Of a stretch of DNA of 20,162 nt, positions 275 through 14,885 are shown piece by piece. Position 1 is the stretch's first letter; every line of letters begins with the position of its first letter. A program made the position numbers and the translations under genes. Source of the stretch: a virus (taxonomy: Duplodnaviria > Heunggongvirae > Uroviricota > Caudoviricetes). The notes beneath the pieces were generated by a model. It did no database searches and was not told the DNA's origin. It was given only the letters and a program-made list of their open reading frames with translations. Location: IMG/VR virus record IMGVR_UViG_2684623171_000007, one strand, 5' to 3'.

Positions 275-1434
275 CTGTTCCCTCCCTGTGCGGCATGGTC
301 GCATGTGCGTGCGGAGGGGGTTACTGCTTTTTGTTGTCGCCGTGGCGGGAGAACGGCGCAGGGGTGAGATTACGCGAGTGGTGGGTGATGATTGTTGCCG
401 AATCATTTAACGGATACAAGGGGCTGAAGCTATGAGTGAAACTCGTTTTCATGGTGCCCGTGTTACGGAAAGTACCGACCTGGTAACAGCGATTAATGAT
501 GTTGATTCCAGTGTTATCGGTATCGTGGCAACGGCAGATGATGCGGACGCGGAGCTGTTCCCGCTGAACAAGCCCACACTGCTGACCCGCGTCAATGACG
601 TGCTGGGAAAATGCGGGACTACGGGGACGCTTTATCGTGCGCTTAAGGCTATCGCAGACCAGGTGAGCACAAAAGTGATCGTCGTTCGCGTGGCTGAACA
701 CAAAGAAGAAGGCGGTAAGACGCAGGATCAACTGGTTATCGGTGGTTCTGAATCTGACGGCAGCTATACGGGGATGTATGCGCTGCTTGTTGCAGAGCAG
801 GATGAAAGCATCGGATACCGTCCGCGTATTCTGGCCGCGCCGGAGCTGGACACGGAGGCGGTAACAAAATCCCTGTGCGTGATTGCGGGTAAACTGCGCG
901 CGTTTGTGTATGCCACATGTCATGGTTGTAACACGATGGCTGAGGCGATTACCTACCGCCAGAAATTCAACGAACGTGAGGTGATGCTCTTATGGCCTGA
1001 CTTCATCGCCTACAACCTGAAAAGTGGCAAAAACGAAACGTTCCCCGCGCCTGCTTATGCGTGCGGCCTTCGTGCGTACATTGACCATGAGCAGGGCTGG
1101 CACAAATCGCTGTCCAACGTTCCGGTTAAAAATGTGCTTGGGATGTCGAGGCATGTGTTCTGGTCGTTGCAGGCCGAAGACAGTGATGCCAACAGCCTCA
1201 ACAACAAAGAAATCACGACCATTATTCGTCGCAACGGGTTCCGCTTCTGGGGCAACCGCACACCGGAAACGAACGCCTACATCTTTGAGGTGTATACCCG
1301 AACCGCACAGGTGCTGGCTGATTCAATTGCGGAAGCGCAGTTTGAAACCATCGACAGTCCACTGACACCTGCGAACGTGAAGGATGTTATCAGTGCCATC
1401 AGGGCAAAACTGGATTCACTGGTTACTGCCGGGA

Positions 1435-1437
1435 AAC
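1435..1437. repeat. target-site duplication AAC, left copy
   Basis: AAC immediately outside the IS end at 1438; identical AAC at 2748-2750. A 3-bp duplication is typical for IS3-family elements. Confidence 0.75.
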
Positions 1438-1479
1438 TGAACCGCCCCGGGTTTCCTGGAGAGTGTTTTATCTGTGAAC

Positions 1480-2370
1480 TCAGGCTGCCAGATCATCGTT
1501 TCCGATGGAAGCATAATAAGCTTTTTCTGCTTCTGCCGGAGGAGTATGGCCCAGCCTTCCCAGCAATCGTCGATTGTTATACCAGTCCACCCACGTTAGT
1601 GTGGCCAGTTCCACTTCTGCACGGTTTTTCCAGCTCTTACGGTGTATTACCTCCGCTTTGTAAAGACCATTGATGCTCTCAGCCATCGCGTTGTCATACG
1701 AGTCGCCTGTACTCCCTGTTGATGCCAGTAATCCGGCTTCTTTTAGTCGCTCCGTATAGGCCAGTGACACATACTGAGAGCCTTTATCGCTGTGATGGAT
1801 GGTGCCAGACGGACGACGGGCCCACAACGCCTGCTCCAGCGCATCCAGCACGAATGTCGTTTCCATAGACGATGAGACCCGCCACCCCACGATGTATCCG
1901 GCAAACACATCAATGATAAACGCCACATAGACGAAGCCCTGCCATGTGCTGACGTAAGTAAAATCAGCCACCCACAGCTGGTCAGGTCGTTCTGCCACGA
2001 ACTGACGGTTTACGCGGTCGCCTGCGGCAACGGCTTTCCGGCTGATGGTCGTACGGACCTTTTTACCCCGGAGAACACCGGCAAGTCCCATAACCGCCAT
2101 GAGACGTGCCACTGTACATCTGGCCACCCTGATTCCTTCCCGTAACAACTGACGCCAGACTTTACGCACACCGTACACCTGATGATTTTCATCGTATACG
2201 CGCTGTATCTCTCTCTTCAGCCAGTCGTCGTGCTGCGCACGGGCACTGCGTTTATCCGGATGATGTCGCTGTTGCTGACAATGGTAATACGTTGACGGGG
2301 CAATATGCAGTTCGCTGCATACCGGTCCGACCCCGTACTGCTCACGCAGCTTATCCAGCAGTGGCATCAT
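1480..2370 (-). CDS. IS629-like transposase OrfB (catalytic part; normally expressed as an OrfAB fusion by -1 frameshifting in IS3-family elements)
   Basis: ORF track 296 aa in the -1 frame relative to OrfA, overlapping OrfA by 4 nt at an A6 run; contains the DDE-family motifs. Confidence 0.85.
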
Positions 2371-2693
2371 TTTTTCCAGAGGCGGTCGAACTCCGCCTTC
2401 GCAAAATAAGCGGAAGCCTGGCGAAGGATATCGTTACTGCGGCGCAGTTCACGATTTTCACGTTCCAGCTCTTTCAGACGCTGACGTTCAGCGCTGGTGA
2501 GCCCACCATCACCGCCCCCGGTATCCCGCTCATGCTGGCGAACCCAGACACGCAGAGTCTCCGGCGTACAGCCAATCTTTGGGGCAATGGAACAAATTGC
2601 CGCCCACTGTGAGTCATATTCATCCTGACTTTCCAGAACCATACGAATCGCCCGCTGACGGACTTCGGGGGAAAAACGAGTATTTTTAGTCAT
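2367..2693 (-). CDS. IS629-like transposase OrfA (HTH DNA-binding part)
   Basis: ORF track 108 aa: [98 protein letters not shown]. Stop overlaps the OrfB start in an A-rich run (GGAAAAAATGATG). Confidence 0.9.
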
Positions 2694-2747
2694 CCTGTTT
2701 ACCTCTTTCTCAGGGAGTTTAGTCTCCAGGATTTCCGGGGCGGTTCA

Positions 2748-2750
2748 AAC
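2748..2750. repeat. target-site duplication AAC, right copy
   Basis: AAC immediately outside the IS end at 2747; the FI reading frame resumes here. Confidence 0.75.
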
Positions 2751-2928
2751 TGATTGGCGCGGAGTGCTGGTATGACATCGAGGATAACAGCACCACGAAT
2801 TTACGTCAGGGGCGTGTGCGTATTCGCTACAAATATACGCCCGTTCCTCCGCTGGAAGACATGGAGCTTTACCAGTCGTTTACTGATGAATTCTTTGGTC
2901 CCGCATTTGCGGTGCTGGGAGGTGCCTG

Positions 2929-3441
2929 ATGGCTGTACCAAAACATCTTCGCTTTTTTACGCTGTTTGTGGATGGTGAAAACGAAGTGGGTAAGGTGACG
3001 TCCGTCACCCTGCCTAAACTGACGCGCAAAACCGACAGCTACCGGGGTGGTGGCATGATGGGTGCGGTAAGTATTGACCTCGGCCTGGACGACTCCGCGC
3101 TTGATGCGAGCTTTGTCATGGGGGGCGCAGTTCGTGAGCTGTTCCTGAAGTATGGCGGCACGATTGACGGCACGCTACTGCGTTTTGCGGGGGAATACTA
3201 CACCGATGATGAAAGCGACCTGTATGAAGTCGAAATGCGCGGACGTGTGACGGAAATTGATATGGGGGAAGCCAAACAGGGCGAAGCCACATCACACACT
3301 TACGCCATTAAAAACACCTACTACAAGCTGAGTGTTAACGATCGCCCGTTGTGGGAGATTGACCTGCTGAACTTCATTTACCGGAAGGACGGCAAGGACA
3401 TTGTGCCCGATCGCATCCGTTCCGCGCTTGGGCTTGGCTGA
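2929..3441 (+). CDS. FII: tail tube protein (P2 gpFII-like)
   Basis: ORF track 170 aa; ATG overlaps the FI stop (TGATG). Motifs TLPKLTRKTDSYRGGGMMGAVSIDLGLDD...LRFAGEYYTDDESD..EMRGR..EIDMGEAKQGE resemble P2 FII as I recall it. Position directly after the sheath gene. Confidence 0.85.
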   Translation: MAVPKHLRFFTLFVDGENEVGKVTSVTLPKLTRKTDSYRGGGMMGAVSIDLGLDDSALDASFVMGGAVRELFLKYGGTIDGTLLRFAGEYYTDDESDLYEVEMRGRVTEIDMGEAKQGEATSHTYAIKNTYYKLSVNDRPLWEIDLLNFIYRKDGKDIVPDRIRSALGLG

Positions 3442-3495
3442 TAAGTAATATGCAGGCGGCGCAGTGCGTCGCCTCTGACTGAAAGGAGTTTCCTG

Positions 3496-3861
3496 ATGAA
3501 AGAGACGAAAAACATCGATACCGAAAACACGGTAGTTACTGACACTGTGAAAGAAACCAGTGAGCGTGGTGTAAAACTTACCCAACCAATTGAGCGAGGC
3601 GGCGAAAAAATCACGTATGTGGAGATCACCGGGGCTATTGAGCAGGCTGGATCTCTGCGAGATTTGTCGCTGTCTGATGTGCTGAATCTGAAAGCGGAAT
3701 CCATGTTTACGCTGCTGTCACGCGTGACATCACCGCGACTGGATGAAGTGACGATCAAAAAAATGGCATCCCGTGACTTTATTCAGTTATGTGTGGTTGC
3801 CGTAAATTTTTTGAGCGGTGCGGACTCTGGCGGGAAGAACGAACAGGCGACGGAAGCCTGA
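3496..3861 (+). CDS. E: tail assembly chaperone (P2 gpE-like), zero-frame product
   Basis: ORF track 121 aa; GGAG-type Shine-Dalgarno upstream (GAAAGGAGTTTCCTGATG). Position between the tube and tape-measure genes; contains a TTTTTTG slippery heptamer near its 3' end. Confidence 0.7.
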   Translation: MKETKNIDTENTVVTDTVKETSERGVKLTQPIERGGEKITYVEITGAIEQAGSLRDLSLSDVLNLKAESMFTLLSRVTSPRLDEVTIKKMASRDFIQLCVVAVNFLSGADSGGKNEQATEA

Positions 3862-4025
3862 TCACGGTTGTGTGCTTTGAGCACATAGAAGACTTTGTGG
3901 CAGATATTGCCGTTATTTTTAACTGGTCGCCCGCCGAAATCTTCATGATGACGCCCGGCGAAGTGGTTAGCTGGCGTGAGCGGGCGGCACTTCGCAGCGG
4001 GAATGCAGACAATGAAGACTCTTGA
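3496..4025 (+). CDS. E': tail assembly chaperone E+E' fusion, predicted -1 programmed frameshift product (3496..~3812 joined to the -1 frame ending 4025)
   Basis: Heptamer T_TTT_TTG at ~3807-3813 is in the correct phase in the E frame (codons AAT TTT TTG). The -1 frame (ORF track 3789..4025) is open from the slip site for ~70 codons and ends just inside the start of the tape-measure ORF. The same G/GT-type arrangement and T6G motif are established for the P2 E/E' genes. Confidence 0.6.
3807..3813 (+). other. candidate -1 ribosomal frameshift slippery site TTTTTTG
   Basis: Seen directly in the sequence, phased X_XXY_YYZ in the E reading frame. Confidence 0.6.
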
Positions 4026-6815
4026 TATCCGGGTCGCTTTCAGCGCCGTTGACAGGCTGACCCGACCTGCCGAAAACGCACGCCGCCTGATGGGGCAGTT
4101 TGGTGACTCCATCCAGCGAACGCAGGGGGCGATCAAAAATCTCGAGCGTCAGGCGCGATCATTTGAGCGCGCCCGCGACGCTGTCAGTAAAGCGGATGCT
4201 GGCATCGTGAAAGCACGACGCCAGCTTAACGCCCTTAATCAGTTACAACGCACGGGTACAGTGCTCAGCGAAAAACAACAAAAGCTGATGCAGCAGTTAA
4301 GCACCCGGCTTGAACGCCTGAATGAATCGCGCACACGGGAAATTCAGAAAATGAGGGAACTTGGCGGAGAGCTGAAACGCCACGGCATTTCCCTGACAGG
4401 CAGCGATAACACCATTCAGCAGGCCATCAGACGCACCGAACAATACAACAACCAGCTTGAACGCGAACGGCAGGCGCTTGCGCGTGTAACGCAGGCGCGT
4501 GAGCGGTATTCGCACGCGCAGGAAACCGCGGGAAAACTGAAAACAGGTGGTGCGCTGGCAATTGGTGCGGCAGCGGCGGGCGGCTATGCTGCCGGGCGTT
4601 TTTTGCAGCCTGCGATCGGGTTCGGCAAAGAGATGTCCCGCGTTCAGGCACTGACGCGAATCGACAAAAACAGCCCGCAGTTTAAGGCGCTGCGTGAGCA
4701 GGCGTTAAAACTTGCTGAAACACAGTTTACTGCGAGTGATGCCGCCAGTGGGCAGAGCTTTCTGGCAATGGCTGGTTTTACTCCGCAGGCCATTCAGGCC
4801 GCATTGCCCGGTGTTCTTAATATGGCGCTGGCAGGTGGCGTCGAACTCGGCGAGACGGCTGATATAGGCTCCAATATCCTCACACAGTTCAACCTGACAG
4901 CCGATCAAATGGACCGGGTGGGCGATACGCTGACAGCAGCATTTACCCGGACCAATACTGATTTACGCGCGCTGGGCGAAACCATGAAGTATACCGGTCC
5001 GGTTGCCGCAAAACTTGGTATCAGTCTTGAAGAAGCGGCGGCCATGGCCGGGATGCTTGCCAATAATGGTCTTCGCGGAAGCGATGCTGGCACGGCCATG
5101 CGCGCAAGTCTGTCCCGCCTTGCATCACCGCCAAAAGCTGCGGCTGATGCACTGAAAGAGCTGGGGGTGTCAGTTGCTGAGGCCAGAGGCAAAATGCGCC
5201 CGATGGAGGATGTGCTGCTTGATCTCTATAAGGCGACACAAAAATACGGACAGGTGGACCAGGTCTCCTTCTTCAAGGACATCGCCGGAGAAGAGGCGTT
5301 CGTTGGTTTGCAGACGCTTGTTGCGGCGGCTGGTTCAGGAGAGCTGCAAAAACTGACCAGAGAATTGCAGGGGGCAAGGGGAGAGGCCGATCGCGTCGCA
5401 AAAGTAATGGCTGATAATCTTGATGGGGACCTGAAAAATCTCGACAGCGCATGGGAAGGTCTTCGTATTCGCATCAGTGATCTGGTTGACGGTCCGCTGC
5501 GTTCTGTCACGCAGTGGCTCACGCGGGTGCTTGAAAAAATCACCTCGCTGGCGCAGGCCCATCCGGTACTGACGCGCCAGCTACTGATAGCAGGCGGTGC
5601 GTTGCTGGCAATGACTGCAACGATTGGCTCGTTGTCGCTGGTTATTGGGGTGCTTTACGGGAAGCTGGCCACCCTGCGTCTTGGTTTTGACATTCTTACC
5701 CGGTCAATGAATGTCGTCAGGGTGTTACCTGCGCTATGGGGAATGGTGACGGGTTCCGTTTCTTTACTGGGAGGCGTTATCGGGGCGTTGTTCAGTCCGG
5801 TTGGTCTTATCGTGGCTGCGCTTGCCGGAGCTGCCGTTCTTATCTGGAAATACTGGGATCCTATCAGGGCTTTCTTTGCCGGGGTGTTCAGCGGGATTAT
5901 GGAAAGGCTGACCCCGTTGCGCGACACCTTTGAACGGTTTGGCCCTGTTTTTGACGTAATCGGAAGCGGTTCAGCCAGGTGTTTAACTGGTTTAAATCGC
6001 TGCTGTCACCGATGGAGTCCAGCAAGGAAACGCTGGATAAATGTACCAGTGCTGGCGAGGTATTCGGTAACGTTCTTGGTGGTGCGTTACAGCTTGTTCT
6101 GACGCCTGCAAAAATGTTGCTGGATACGCTGGCGTGGATACTTGAAAAACTCGGTGTGCTTCCGGATGAAGCGGAAAGGGCGCGCAAGAAAATCGAAGAC
6201 GCACAACGTGCGGCCATTCTTCAGGACAAGGTTGCTCTGTTTCAGGGAGACATTGCGAAAATCAATCCGCCGAAGTCTGCGGGAAATAGCAATGGCACCG
6301 GAGATGATAAACCCAAAGACAACAAACCTCTCACAGACAGCAATACCGGCACGCTACGCAGACTCAGCAAAATTGCTGATAACACAGGTAAGCTGGTTGA
6401 TGAGACAAAAAAACGCATTGGCCCCGGCGATATTGTCTTTAAGAACCTGCCCCGCGCACTTGCTGTTCGTGGGGAGTGGCAGGAGCGGAAGATTGCGCAG
6501 GTCAGTAAGCCTGCCCCCGCAATTAATATCACACCCGTGGTCCCGGCTCCGCTGCCTCCGGCGCTGGTCCCTGTTGTTGCGGCCAGCTCCCGCCCGGTGG
6601 TGGAGGCCATACGATCGCCAGTGGCATCAGTTCCTGCAACTTCCCGTAACCGGGAGCCTGTTGCCTCCGGATTTGGCGGTGAAATTCATGTTCATCTGCA
6701 TAACGTTGTTACGCAGAATCCCCGCGAACTGGCGAAACTGGTCGGCGAAATGGTCAGGGCAGAAATGGAACGGCGCGCCCGTGCCAGGCGTGGCAGTTTT
6801 TACGATAAAGATTGA
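3976..6815 (+). pseudogene. T: tail tape measure protein (P2 gpT-like), split into two frames by an apparent 1-bp frameshift near 5966-5980
   Basis: ORF track 3976..6102 (708 aa, GTG at 3976; alternative in-frame ATGs at ~4003 and ~4012) is coiled-coil-rich with a long hydrophobic stretch, as expected for a tape measure. ORF 5979..6815 (278 aa) continues in the -1 frame with no gap. Around GGAAGCGGTTCAGCCAGGTG, one extra T (GGTTTCAGC) would give a continuous ..FDVIGSGFSQVFNWFKSLL.. reading. The C-terminal frame ends 13 nt before the U gene. Confidence 0.7.
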
Positions 6816-8090: not shown

Positions 8091-8621
8091 ATTGTGGGGC
8101 GACTGGCCACTCAACATCCGCTGCTACTGTTGTATCAACACGATTCAACAATACCCGATATGTCTTCCATGCAGCCAGTAACGATGCCTCTTCCTCCGTC
8201 GCAATATCCAAATCTACGGCATCCTGAAGTGGCGCAATATGCTCACTGGCTACCTGCATCAGGCTGTTTTTTGTTTCTTCTGCCTCCCGTACCCGAAACA
8301 GTTTTTCTGCTTCTGCATCTTTCGCCCAGGATGTGCCGTTCCACTTCTGACACTCTCCATCCGGCGACAACCAGGTAACATTTTCCGGTAACGGACCGAG
8401 TTCAGAAATAAATAACGCGTCGCCGGAAGCCACGTCATAAACCGTTTTACCCCGATGATCTTCAACGAGATGCCACGATGCCTCATTACTGTTGAAAACA
8501 GCCACGAAGCCAGCCGGAATATCTGGCGGTGCAATATCGGTACTGTTTGCTGGCAGACCTGTATGAGGCGGAATGTATGCGTCACCTTCACCAATAAATT
8601 CATTAGTTCCGGCCAGCAGAT
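8089..8621 (-). pseudogene. tfa: tail fibre assembly protein (Tfa, P2 gpG-like), 5'-truncated by the IS629-like insertion at 8622
   Basis: ORF track 8089..8505 (GTG-initiated) ends ..[30 protein letters not shown], the characteristic Tfa C-terminus. The same frame stays open upstream to the IS boundary (..[45 protein letters not shown]..), matching the internal part of Tfa proteins as I recall them; about 15-20 N-terminal codons and the start codon are missing. Confidence 0.85.
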
Positions 8622-8675
8622 TGAACCGCCCCGGGAATCCTGGAGACTAAACTCCCTGAGAAAGAGGTAAACAGG

Positions 8676-9002
8676 ATGACTAAAAATACACGTTTTTCCC
8701 CCGAGGTCCGTCAACGGGCAGTCCGTATGGTTCTGGAAAGTCAGGGCGAATATGACTCACAATGGGCGGCAATTCGTTCCATTGCCCCAAAGATTGGCTG
8801 TACACCAGAGACTCTGCGTGTGTGGGTTCGTCAGCATGAGCGGGATACCGGGGGCGGTGATGGTGGACTCACCACCGCTGAACGTCAGCGTCTGAAAGAG
8901 CTGGAACGTGAAAATCGTGAACTGCGCCGCAGTAACGATATCCTTCGCCAGGCTTCCGCTTATTTTGCGAAGGCGGAGTTCGACCGCCTCTGGAAAAAAT
9001 AA
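8676..9002 (+). CDS. IS629-like transposase OrfA (copy 2)
   Basis: ORF track 108 aa; differs from copy 1 OrfA at 4 residues (V16, G24, R34, T67 versus I, D, C, S). Confidence 0.85.
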
Positions 9003-9678
9003 TGCCGCTGCTGGATAAGCTGCGTGAGCAGTACGGGGTCGGACCGGTATGCAGTGAACTGCATATTGCCCCGTCAACGGATTACCACTGTCAGCAACAG
9101 CGACATCATCCGGATAAACGCAGTGCCCGTGCGCAGCGCGATGACTGGCTGAAGAGAGAGATACAGCGCGTATACGATGAAAATCATCAGGTGTACGGTG
9201 TGCGTAAAGTCTGGCGCCAGTTGTTACGCGAAGGTATCAGGGTGGCCAGATGTACAGTGGCGCGCCTCATGGCGGTTATGGGACTTGCCGGTGTTCTCCG
9301 GGGTAAAAAGGTCCGTACTACCGTCAGCCGGAAAGCCGTTTCCGCAGGCGACCGCGTAAACCGTCAGTTCGTGGCAGAACGTCCTGACCAGCTGTGGGTG
9401 GCTGATTTTACTTACGTCAGCACATGGCAGGGCTTCGTCTATGTGGCGTTCATCATTGATGTGTTTTCCGGATGTATCGTGGGGTGGCGAGTCTCATCGT
9501 CTATGGAAACGACATTCGTGCTGGATGCACTGGAGCAGGCGTTGTGGGCCCGTCGGCCGTCCGGCACAGTCCATCACAGTGATAAAGGTTCTCAGTATGT
9601 ATCACTGGCCTATACGGAGCGACTAAAAGAAGCAAAACTGCTGGCATCAACAGGGAGTACAGGTGACTCGTATGACAA
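9002..9678 (+). pseudogene. IS629-like transposase OrfB, C-terminally truncated (copy 2)
   Basis: ORF track 9002..9691 (229 aa); the last residues (..DSYDNVFY*) are read from non-IS sequence, so the conserved C-terminal ~70 aa of OrfB are missing. Confidence 0.8.
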
Positions 9679-9710
9679 TGTATTTTATTAGTTCACATAC
9701 AATTATCAGA

Positions 9711-10025
9711 TTATTCTGGGAATAAGGTCTGAATATTCTTTTTTATTTTATAAAAATTGCATTCAACTCCGCTAGGCTGATTAGCCTGGTATGTTTCCTT
9801 GATGCTAACGGTATTGAAGGGGAGGTTGTCCTCTGGCCATTCGGCCATCCAGTAGGCAAATGCTGGGTTGCGCTTTATGAGTGCTAGCCCAGCCAGAAAG
9901 GCCGCGCGTTGCGCGCGGCTGCGTTCGGAGGCTGGCAGGCTATCGAGGTAATTGCACGCCTCCTGTTCACTCTTGACGGCGGCGGGCTTCAGATAGAAAC
10001 TTATCCGTCTGGTTGGTGTCGTCAT
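9711..10025 (-). CDS. parR: ParR/StbB-like centromere-binding partition protein (ribbon-helix-helix)
   Basis: ORF track 104 aa; starts 5 bp after the parM-like stop. N-terminal half (RRISFYLKP...LDSLPASERSRAQRAAFLAGLAL) resembles ParR of plasmid R1 as I recall it (..TIAFKLNP..LDSIPQGERSRLNRAALTAGLAL..). The C-terminal third is divergent and encoded by AT-rich DNA next to the IS junction. Confidence 0.6.
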   Translation of the reverse strand: MTTPTRRISFYLKPAAVKSEQEACNYLDSLPASERSRAQRAAFLAGLALIKRNPAFAYWMAEWPEDNLPFNTVSIKETYQANQPSGVECNFYKIKKNIQTLFPE

Positions 10026-10029
10026 TGGT

Positions 10030-10989
10030 TTACTCCTTGTTCATTGCGTACAACCCATTAACCAGAGCAAACTGTGGCACCCCGTCCGCGATGAAAGTCG
10101 CATTAACTCCGCAGGCTTCGCGGATAGCGGTTGCCACAATCTCCGCCCCGCCACCGACAACCATCACCCGCCCGTAACCCGAAAAAACCGCCAGCGCGCG
10201 GATCACGCGTTGTTTCAGTGTTTCTTCCTTTTCACGAATAACCGCCATCAGGCTGGCGTAATGCGCGTCATTGTGGATGTGCTGGCGCAGCCAGGCTTCA
10301 TCATGGCGATGTTCGATAATGGTATTGGCGATGTGGTGACTGGTGCGCATACCGTTAGTGGCCATCACCGACAGTACGGCATCGGCCATCAGAGAAACGC
10401 CTACGTGTGGATCGCAAAACACCTGGCTGATACCTGCCAGTTGCCCCTGAACCTTTGCCACATCCAGCGTGGTTCCGCCCAAATCCACAATCAGCAGGGA
10501 TTCAAACGGACTCATGTCAGCCAGTGCCTTAAAGCCAGCAGGAATGGATTCAGGCATAACCCGTACGTTACGGATAGTGAATGCTTCGCCGTTCTGGTAC
10601 TCCACCGGGCGCATGACGTTCGCTTTTTTGCGGTTGATGTTGGCCATGTCCGGCTGTGCGTTTGTATCGAAATACTCGCTCAGTGGCAGGGTGACAACCA
10701 CATCCACTTCCTGTGGTGTGATGCCTGATTTGACCAGCGCGTGATGAATGGCAATTACATTCACATCGCTGTACTGGTATTGCGTGTCGGTCGTCTGGAC
10801 AAAGCGATCGCTGACCGGATCAAAACCATAGCGCACGCCATCAAGCATGTAGTTCGCGGGCTGCGTGCCACCGAATGGCGCAGACCATTCCGACTTGAAG
10901 CTGTTCGGGCTGATGGCGTTGCGGCGTTCGCCGTTCTCAGTCCATGCCAGCTTGATGTTGGTGGAGCCGTCGTCGATACAAATTTTCAT
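10030..10989 (-). CDS. parM: ParM/StbA-like actin-type partition ATPase
   Basis: ORF track 319 aa with AAGGA Shine-Dalgarno. Family-defining blocks IDDGSTNIKL, ISPNSF, YQYSDVNVIAIHHAL, MPESIPAG, LIVDLGGTTLD, GVSL, FSGY..VMVVGGGAE and LVNGLY align with R1 ParM/StbA as I recall it. Confidence 0.85.
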   Translation of the reverse strand: MKICIDDGSTNIKLAWTENGERRNAISPNSFKSEWSAPFGGTQPANYMLDGVRYGFDPVSDRFVQTTDTQYQYSDVNVIAIHHALVKSGITPQEVDVVVTLPLSEYFDTNAQPDMANINRKKANVMRPVEYQNGEAFTIRNVRVMPESIPAGFKALADMSPFESLLIVDLGGTTLDVAKVQGQLAGISQVFCDPHVGVSLMADAVLSVMATNGMRTSHHIANTIIEHRHDEAWLRQHIHNDAHYASLMAVIREKEETLKQRVIRALAVFSGYGRVMVVGGGAEIVATAIREACGVNATFIADGVPQFALVNGLYAMNKE

Positions 10990-13894: not shown

Positions 13895-14260
13895 TTACTT
13901 CGTCATGCCATTCAGGGTGTCGCGGCAGGCTGTAGCCAGCCGCTGAATTTCCAGCACGGTGTCTTCTGTGTCGGCATGGCGATGTGTGATGCGGATGCTG
14001 TCGGCAATCACATCGACGATTGCAGAGGATGGGCGCTGGTAAATGCCAATAACGGACGGGGTGCCACCTTCAATGCGGTAAAGCCTGTAATTTCCCTCGT
14101 GGCTGTCAATCATGTAGCGACCATCAATAACAATCTTTCCGTCAGCGAGCTGCGGTACAGGCAGGGATTTCAGGTACATGTCATAACGATCACGCACGCG
14201 AGCGGCAAGATCACGTTCTGTGTTGAGCAGGTATTCAAGAAAGTCGTTGGCGAGAATCAT
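13895..14260 (-). CDS. hypothetical protein (early operon, immediately upstream of A)
   Basis: ORF track 121 aa, same strand and tightly spaced with A; no family recognised by eye. Confidence 0.45.
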   Translation of the reverse strand: MILANDFLEYLLNTERDLAARVRDRYDMYLKSLPVPQLADGKIVIDGRYMIDSHEGNYRLYRIEGGTPSVIGIYQRPSSAIVDVIADSIRITHRHADTEDTVLEIQRLATACRDTLNGMTK

Positions 14261-14332
14261 TGCGGCAATCCTCTTGTTACAGATGTGCGAAGGCCTCCCG
14301 CCGCAAGGTGCAGGAAAGGCCCGGAACAGGAA

Positions 14333-14563
14333 TTAATGGAGTTTGTTTTGCTGCTGGATGAGCTGTTGAAACTCGTGCAGATCATCCGCCAGATAGCTGA
14401 AAACAGAGGCGGAATAAATGTTTGATAGTGCGTGGCTGCGCTCATGCAGCATATTGATGTGCATGATTTGCGCGACGCGTGATGCGCGGGAAAGTCTGCG
14501 GTTGATTTCAGTCTGGATGTGACGACGCTCCGCGATAGCGCGGTGCTGTTTGCGGTCTGCCAT
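14333..14563 (-). CDS. hypothetical small basic protein (76 aa)
   Basis: ORF track; AAGAGG Shine-Dalgarno about 8 nt upstream of the ATG. Preferred over the overlapping 205-aa ORF 14257..14874, which has low-complexity composition. Confidence 0.4.
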   Translation of the reverse strand: MADRKQHRAIAERRHIQTEINRRLSRASRVAQIMHINMLHERSHALSNIYSASVFSYLADDLHEFQQLIQQQNKLH

Positions 14564-14740
14564 GGTGTGGCCTCTTTGCTCGGTGATAGAAATAACTCAC
14601 CATCCAGAGTTGAGAATCTCGGGGTGGCGAGACGTACAGGGTTCTCAACACCGGAGAGCAAAGAATCCGGCCCGACCGAAGTCGGCCCCGTACGCCCCGC
14701 CATAATTCTGACGCGAAAAAGACGTGGCAATACAGTACGC

Positions 14741-14764
14741 ACAAAAAAACCGCTAGCGCGGTTA
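14741..14764 (-). terminator. candidate rho-independent terminator on the minus strand
   Basis: On the minus strand: 6-bp stem AACCGC/GCGGTT with a 4-nt loop, followed by TTTTTTT (plus strand reads ACAAAAAAACCGCTAGCGCGGTT). Confidence 0.4.
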
Positions 14765-14835
14765 TGCGCTTTGCTCTGTATCGGGTTGAGAATCCCGGCA
14801 CCCGTTTTATGAGGTGCAGCGGAAATGTAACCTGA

Positions 14836-14864
14836 CCGATTGCGGCATGGCAAGCGGTTTTTTT
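14836..14864 (+). terminator. candidate rho-independent terminator on the plus strand (antisense to the early operon)
   Basis: CCGATTGC-GGCATG-GCAAGCGG (8-bp stem with one mismatch, 6-nt loop) followed by TTTTTTT. Confidence 0.4.
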
Positions 14865-14885
14865 GTGTGTGCATGTTCTGGTTTC

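Follow-up and report, generated by a model that had tools for sequence, protein, structure and literature searches.

A complete IS629 (IS1203 isoform) element in the tail sheath gene of the defective prophage Sp13 of Escherichia coli O157:H7

In the 20,162-nucleotide stretch of DNA analysed here (hereafter the window), the tail sheath gene of a defective P2-like prophage is interrupted by a complete IS629 element of the IS1203 isoform, 1310 bp in length and lying on the minus strand. It is almost certain that an active IS629 element made this new copy within codon 336 of the sheath gene. This is the explanation that accounts best for the observations described below, none of which contradicts it.

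Over its whole length, the window matches E. coli O157:H7 FRIK944 (NZ_CP016625.1) at 100% identity; it lies in the prophage Sp13, beside a tRNA-Leu gene (leuZ). When the element is left out of the comparison, only eight SNPs in about 18.8 kb separate the window from Sp13 of strain Sakai; the other difference between the two is the insertion itself, which amounts to 1313 bp. The closest relative of the Sp13 tail module is phage P88 (Xuanwuvirus, Peduoviridae), and both have the same gene order, with gpD on the minus strand and the genes for sheath, tube, E, E', T and U on the plus strand. An inversion of the FI to U tail segment relative to P2 was considered and rejected, since P88 natively has gpD on the minus strand and the sheath gene on the plus strand. 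Relative to P88, Sp13 is devoid of head, baseplate and fibre genes, carries a frameshift in its tape measure gene, and has its gpD cut by an IS30. The window starts about 7 nt inside the end of this IS30 (using coordinates converted from the Sakai annotation), and the truncated gpD (late control D) occupies positions 8-274 of the minus strand. Two overlapping frames, 3976-6102 and 5979-6815, represent the split tape measure gene. Its frameshift is annotated in Sakai as well as in FRIK944, which indicates that the tail module was broken before the IS629 arrived. Together, the IS30 and two IS629 copies make three IS-related breaks in this 20-kb prophage remnant, an "IS island" as described for O157.

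The features of the element and of its surroundings are listed in Table 1. The first bases of the element, at 1438, are TGAACCGCCCC..., and the last, at 2747, are ...GGGGCGGTTCA; written out as letters, its boundaries run from TGAACCGCCCCGGG... to ...CCGGGGCGGTTCA. The terminal inverted repeats located by a repeat finder are 25 nt each, are complementary at 22 of the 25 positions, and give the element the ends TGAACC...GGTTCA. Both transposase frames, orfA and orfB, are intact, and overlap at ATGA. OrfB scores 316 bits against the NCBIfam model transpos_IS3 (an IS3-family equivalog, with a cut-off of 160), and its rve domain is matched over positions 2-101 of 102 in Pfam. The DD(35)E residues, which I assigned by eye from the translation, are the D of WVADFTY, the D of HHSDKGSQY, and the E of NAMAESING, 35 residues on. 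An ALIL pseudoknot was identified with a score of 121.5 bits, compared to a gathering score of 50, and covers the A6 run at the orfA stop. The A6 run and the pseudoknot, located at the orfA/orfB overlap, form the predicted -1 frameshift signal for the OrfAB transposase, and the IS1203-family transposase is annotated as a programmed-frameshift product in the RefSeq record of FRIK944.

Table 1. Coordinates of the sheath gene fragments, the complete IS629 element with its target duplication, and the truncated second copy (positions in the window).
Feature	Position	Strand	Basis or remarks
Sheath gene 5' fragment, codons 1-335 and first base of codon 336	432-1437	+	Pfam Phage_sheath_1, Gp18_domIII_N
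Left target site duplication, AAC	1435-1437		Letters, and single AAC in the Sakai empty allele
IS629 (IS1203 isoform), complete	1438-2747	-	IRR end at 1438, IRL end at 2747
IRR, right terminal inverted repeat, TGAACCGCCCCGGGTTTCCTGGAGA	1438-1462		Repeat finder
orfB, 296 aa, HTH_21 and rve (DDE integrase core)	1480-2370	-	Pfam PF13276, PF00665
ALIL pseudoknot and A6 slippery run (TGG AAA AAA TGA)	2296-2412	-	Rfam RF01497
orfA, 108 aa, HTH_Tnp_1 DNA-binding domain	2367-2693	-	Pfam PF01527, E = 2.4e-12
IRL, left terminal inverted repeat	2723-2747		Repeat finder
Right target site duplication, AAC	2748-2750		Letters, and single AAC in the Sakai empty allele
Sheath gene 3' fragment, rest of codon 336 to codon 394 and stop	2751-2929	+	Pfam PF17482
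Truncated IS629-subtype copy: IRL, orfA, first 225 codons of orfB	8622-9678	+	Alignment to the complete copy

The 1310 bp of the element are 100% identical to many copies in O157:H7, O111 and other E. coli, which are annotated in RefSeq as "IS3-like element IS1203 family transposase". Identity to the annotated IS629 of the Sakai plasmid pO157 is 99.7% (4 mismatches), and identity to IS629 copies of Shigella flexneri is approximately 95.4% (56 mismatches). With 100% and 99.7% identity to annotated IS1203 and IS629 copies, the resemblance is not a matter of chance. In ISfinder practice, nucleotide identity of roughly 95% or more denotes the same IS or an isoform. Length, TG...CA ends, overlapping ORFs, DDE residues, target duplication and nucleotide identity all place the element in IS629/IS1203, the identity having been judged on annotated copies. 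An earlier reading of the window, made from its letters without database searches (the sequence-only reading), had proposed a complete IS629-like element at this position, and the inverted repeats, the two transposase frames, the ALIL pseudoknot and the identity to IS629/IS1203 bear this out. Three subtypes of IS629, 4-5% apart, have been described (Rump et al., PMC3271280), and the mismatch counts given above suggest that the complete copy is of their IS1203-like subtype I. In itself, the element shows no difference from the IS629/IS1203 of E. coli O157:H7, where it is the dominant IS, and the 3-bp duplication, the frameshift signal and the location in a prophage are likewise the same.

The sheath ORF, in its interrupted form, spans positions 432-1673 and runs into the element, giving a 413-aa chimera. 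In silico deletion of positions 1438-2750 produces a single ORF of 394 aa starting at 432, the same length as ECs_2645 (394 aa). The restored protein is identical to the sheath protein of the functional phage P88 (gp49) at 381 of 394 residues (97%) without gaps, and the match continues across the junction, which lies between ...AGKL and IGAE.... That removal of the element returns a full-length sheath frame, as had been claimed from the letters, is therefore confirmed. The presence of Phage_sheath_1, Gp18_domIII_N and Phage_sheath_1C, along with full-length collinearity with P88, identifies the product as a contractile tail sheath of the P2 gpFI type, and the break at codon 336 is located within the Phage_sheath_1C domain (residues 281-374; Pfam). 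The tube gene follows directly after the sheath gene. This interruption is also visible in the RefSeq annotation of FRIK944, where a sheath pseudogene ("missing C-terminus") and a 3' sheath fragment stand on either side of an intact transposase of the IS1203 family.

Restoration of the frame is no test of the target duplication, since the frame comes out the same whether or not one AAC is deleted along with the element. The empty site was assembled in silico, by joining 432-1437 to 2751-3750 (2006 bp), and searched for in 5426 complete E. coli genomes. It matches unbroken, with 100% identity, in Sakai, EDL933, EC4115, TW14359 and dozens more. The empty site that the sequence-only reading had expected in related strains was thus found, by genome search, in Sakai, EDL933 and others. 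The uninterrupted Sakai allele reads GCCGGGAAAC followed directly by TGATTGG, with one AAC only. As the empty allele contains a single AAC, the flanking triplets are a true 3-bp target duplication; the possibility against which the earlier reading had guarded, that the uninterrupted allele would show them to be no true duplication, was examined in Sakai and is not the case. Target duplications of 3-4 bp have been reported for IS629 (PMC3271280), and the four genomes of that study (Sakai, EDL933, EC4115 and TW14359) all have the empty sheath site, unlike the window. In a survey of Shigella and E. coli loci, a 3-bp duplication was preserved at only 3 of the 11 elements that had both ends; as these are old and rearranged copies, the duplication was judged from the empty site and the published study instead.

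The complete element, the AAC duplication and the existence of an empty allele agree with the simple transposition event proposed in the sequence-only reading. There are about 17-18 copies of IS629 in this O157:H7 lineage/chromosome, all potential donors. By analogy with other members of the IS3 family, OrfAB would be made by -1 ribosomal frameshifting at the A6 run and ALIL pseudoknot, and would copy the element out as a circle. This circle would then be integrated at a target whose two strands are cut 3 bp apart, and repair of the stagger would duplicate AAC.

In order to identify other genomes with the occupied site, a probe of 100 nt across the left junction was used. The site is occupied in exactly five of the 5426 complete E. 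coli genomes, namely FRIK944, FRIK2069, FRIK2455, FRIK2533 and BB24-1, which are closely related and were all isolated from cattle or water. The prophage (at least 80% of it) is present in 263 genomes. For 17,412 bp to the right of the insertion, no base distinguishes the window from at least 38 non-carriers (100% identity), and the IS copy has no mismatch to the common copy. Taken together, the five carriers in 5426 genomes, the mismatch-free element and the identical flanks in non-carriers show that the insertion is recent, and what had been put as "probably recent" from the letters is hence strengthened, with 17.4 kb free of SNPs relative to at least 38 non-carriers. The insertion is thus more recent than every point mutation of this prophage, and its recent date is well supported.

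It could be argued that the insertion is instead old, and that the empty alleles arose by precise excision, perhaps through the IS-excision enhancer (IEE) of O157. Two reports state that IEE promotes IS629 excision in O157 (PMC9943667; 10.1101/2023.06.07.543989), and precise excision would leave exactly the single-AAC allele that is observed. However, only 5 of the 263 Sp13-bearing genomes are occupied, and empty alleles are found in every major O157 lineage, including Sakai, EDL933, EC4115 and TW14359. In addition, the exact prophage haplotype of the carriers is shared by the at least 38 non-carriers, and the IS is indistinguishable from the common active copy. An old insertion would therefore require very many independent precise excisions, and is highly improbable.

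An equally slim chance attaches to the interrupted allele having reached some of the carriers by homologous recombination or transduction, and not by single descent. The three FRIK2xxx genomes, which are near-identical, differ in source from BB24-1 and FRIK944, and it has been shown in Sakai that mitomycin C still induces Sp13 to excise and replicate, with weak packaging, although most morphogenetic genes are absent (PMC2669165). However, the transfer efficiency of Sp13 was 0 in the same work, with no transfer detected experimentally (PMC2669165), and the flanks and resistance-gene profile common to the carriers fit descent from one ancestor. The five-gene profile is shared by the five carriers, and was found elsewhere in that study only in strains 2-6-2 and SS TX 313-1 (PMC10731853); strain 2-6-2 has an empty site. 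The five carriers thus appear to be monophyletic, and even if the allele had been transferred, the original event would still be the same simple transposition. Finally, an assembly artefact, whereby an IS repeat was misplaced in the sheath gene, can be set aside as scarcely credible: IS629 is multicopy, and repeats are a classic source of misassembly, but the identical junction is present in five complete genome records, including strains of different sources, and both junctions are clean, with a duplication of the length expected for IS629.

A separate observation on these genomes is that a query spanning the sheath and tube genes has two matching places in each of the five carriers, and one in the other O157 genomes listed. 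The five carriers may hold a second P2/P88-like prophage.

The window includes a second IS copy, 5.9 kb away from the complete element, of the same family and with the same architecture over the first 1057 bp. It consists of 1057 of the 1310 bp; the final 253 bp, with IRR and the catalytic Glu, are gone, and its reading frame ends at ...TGDSYDN, just short of this residue. An ALIL pseudoknot is also identified by Rfam in this copy (8957-9073). Alignment of the two copies reveals 52 mismatches over 1057 aligned positions (4.9%, or 95.1% identity). Sakai has the truncated copy in the same place, under the annotation "IS1203 ... partial" (ECs_2636/2637), and it is 100% identical at this locus in at least 20 further O157 genomes, which argues that it is old and immobile. 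On the basis of these alignments, it can be described as an old, immobile remnant of another IS629 subtype that is fixed across O157:H7, and not as a sibling of the complete copy. Site IS.14 of Rump et al. (2011) is probably this copy.

The sequence-only reading had described the two copies as lying in opposite orientation and differing at several positions. The orientation is correct, but the differences are far from few (52 of 1057), the subtypes are not the same, and the second copy is truncated. Similarly, about 1 kb of inverted homology, suggested as a substrate for recombination, does exist, but its longest perfect run is 125 bp, and there is no inversion between the copies in any of the five carriers, where the sheath flanks are colinear and 1313 bp apart. 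A divergence of 5% lowers RecA-dependent exchange when mismatch repair is active. I also considered a composite transposon made of the two IS copies, which is ruled out since the truncated copy has no IRR, and hence no outer end.

Two of the eight SNPs that separate the window from Sakai, at 8775 and 9080, are located inside the truncated copy, and in both cases the Sakai base is that of the active IS629. Gene conversion between the two copies in this lineage was rejected, since both SNPs make the truncated copy less like the complete one. Small conversion patches in the Sakai lineage could account for them, as could ordinary mutation in that of FRIK; the window alleles at both positions are common to many cattle-associated O157 genomes.

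Several other features were noted around the truncated copy. It adjoins a StbB/ParM-like partition gene pair next to the replication gene gpA (9679-10989). The head-to-fibre genes of a P88-like phage are absent between the truncated IS with its partition pair and the tfa gene, which suggests an old IS-associated deletion. An IS009 sRNA is predicted by Rfam inside the tail fibre assembly gene adjoining the truncated IS (8126-8324, minus strand, 191 bits). A candidate defence system from FRIK944, which may or may not be this locus, was synthesised in a previous study, and showed no activity (Rousset et al., bioRxiv 10.1101/2021.01.21.427644).

Two Rfam matches on the minus strand also fall in the early region of Sp13, to the C4 antisense RNA (14620-14707, 78.5 bits) and to the Hfq-binding sRNA isrK (14743-14817, 63 bits). 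Both are within or beside genes annotated in Sakai as encoding antirepressor and derepression proteins (window positions 13895-14874), and one of the SNPs relative to Sakai, at 14624, falls inside C4. These RNAs may have a bearing on the unexplained inducibility of Sp13 by mitomycin C (PMC2669165).

The sequences flanking the two IS copies resemble each other. Positions 1414-1437, outside the right end of the complete copy, and positions 8598-8621, outside the left end of the truncated copy, agree in register at 16 of 24 positions. No other pair of 24-mers in the window does so (binomial P of about 2-6e-5), and some blast matches at other IS629 sites ran on into the flank. For a test of a target consensus, 271 right-end (IRR) flanks were gathered from genome, viral and metagenome contigs, of which 231 were left after de-duplication. 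In these 231 flanks, the mean match to the window flank is 6.07 of 24, compared to 6.06 for controls, with a maximum of 11, and their gapped scores are no different from the control (p = 0.52). This survey rejects a target-site consensus as the cause of the resemblance, and the blast matches extending into the flank were discounted as evidence for one, being the most extreme among thousands of sites. When real flanks are paired at random, at least 16 of 24 positions match at a frequency of 2.6e-4, and the resemblance is most likely due to chance.

I also considered that new IS629 insertions are guided to sequences resembling a nearby IS-end junction, that is, a local and homology-assisted form of targeting. 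This is very unlikely, but if true, it could help explain the pile-up of IS629 in "IS islands" and in the same prophages. The 231 flanks do show a weak target bias, with C at position -5 in 111 of them (48%), C depleted at -4, and A or T at -2. The IRL side of the insertion in the window fits this bias (CAGTT next to the element), whereas the IRR side (GAAAC) does not. This is slightly more than the absence of any clear target sequence pattern reported for IS629 (Rump et al., 2011, PMC3271280). In that study, 62% of IS629 copies were located in prophages, Sp13 included (PMC3271280).

As a result of the insertion, the sheath is cut short within its C-terminal domain, and the downstream tail genes are separated from the sheath gene by an antisense IS. 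As Sp13 is without most morphogenesis genes, and its tape measure gene is frameshifted, loss of the sheath C-terminus would take away nothing that still worked, and the insertion is most likely neutral; the sequence-only reading was unaware that the prophage was defective. Nonetheless, since Sp13 is still able to excise, to replicate and to be packaged at a low level in Sakai, an effect on what remains of the tail operon is possible.

The event is a routine IS629 polymorphism of O157 prophages, already known and annotated in public genomes, and bears on no open question. It adds one more lineage-specific marker to the IS629 insertions on which IS-printing and strain typing of O157:H7 already draw, and could serve as a clade marker for the group of FRIK944, FRIK2069, FRIK2455, FRIK2533 and BB24-1. 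For the prophage itself, it illustrates the ongoing, IS-driven decay of the Sp13 remnant.
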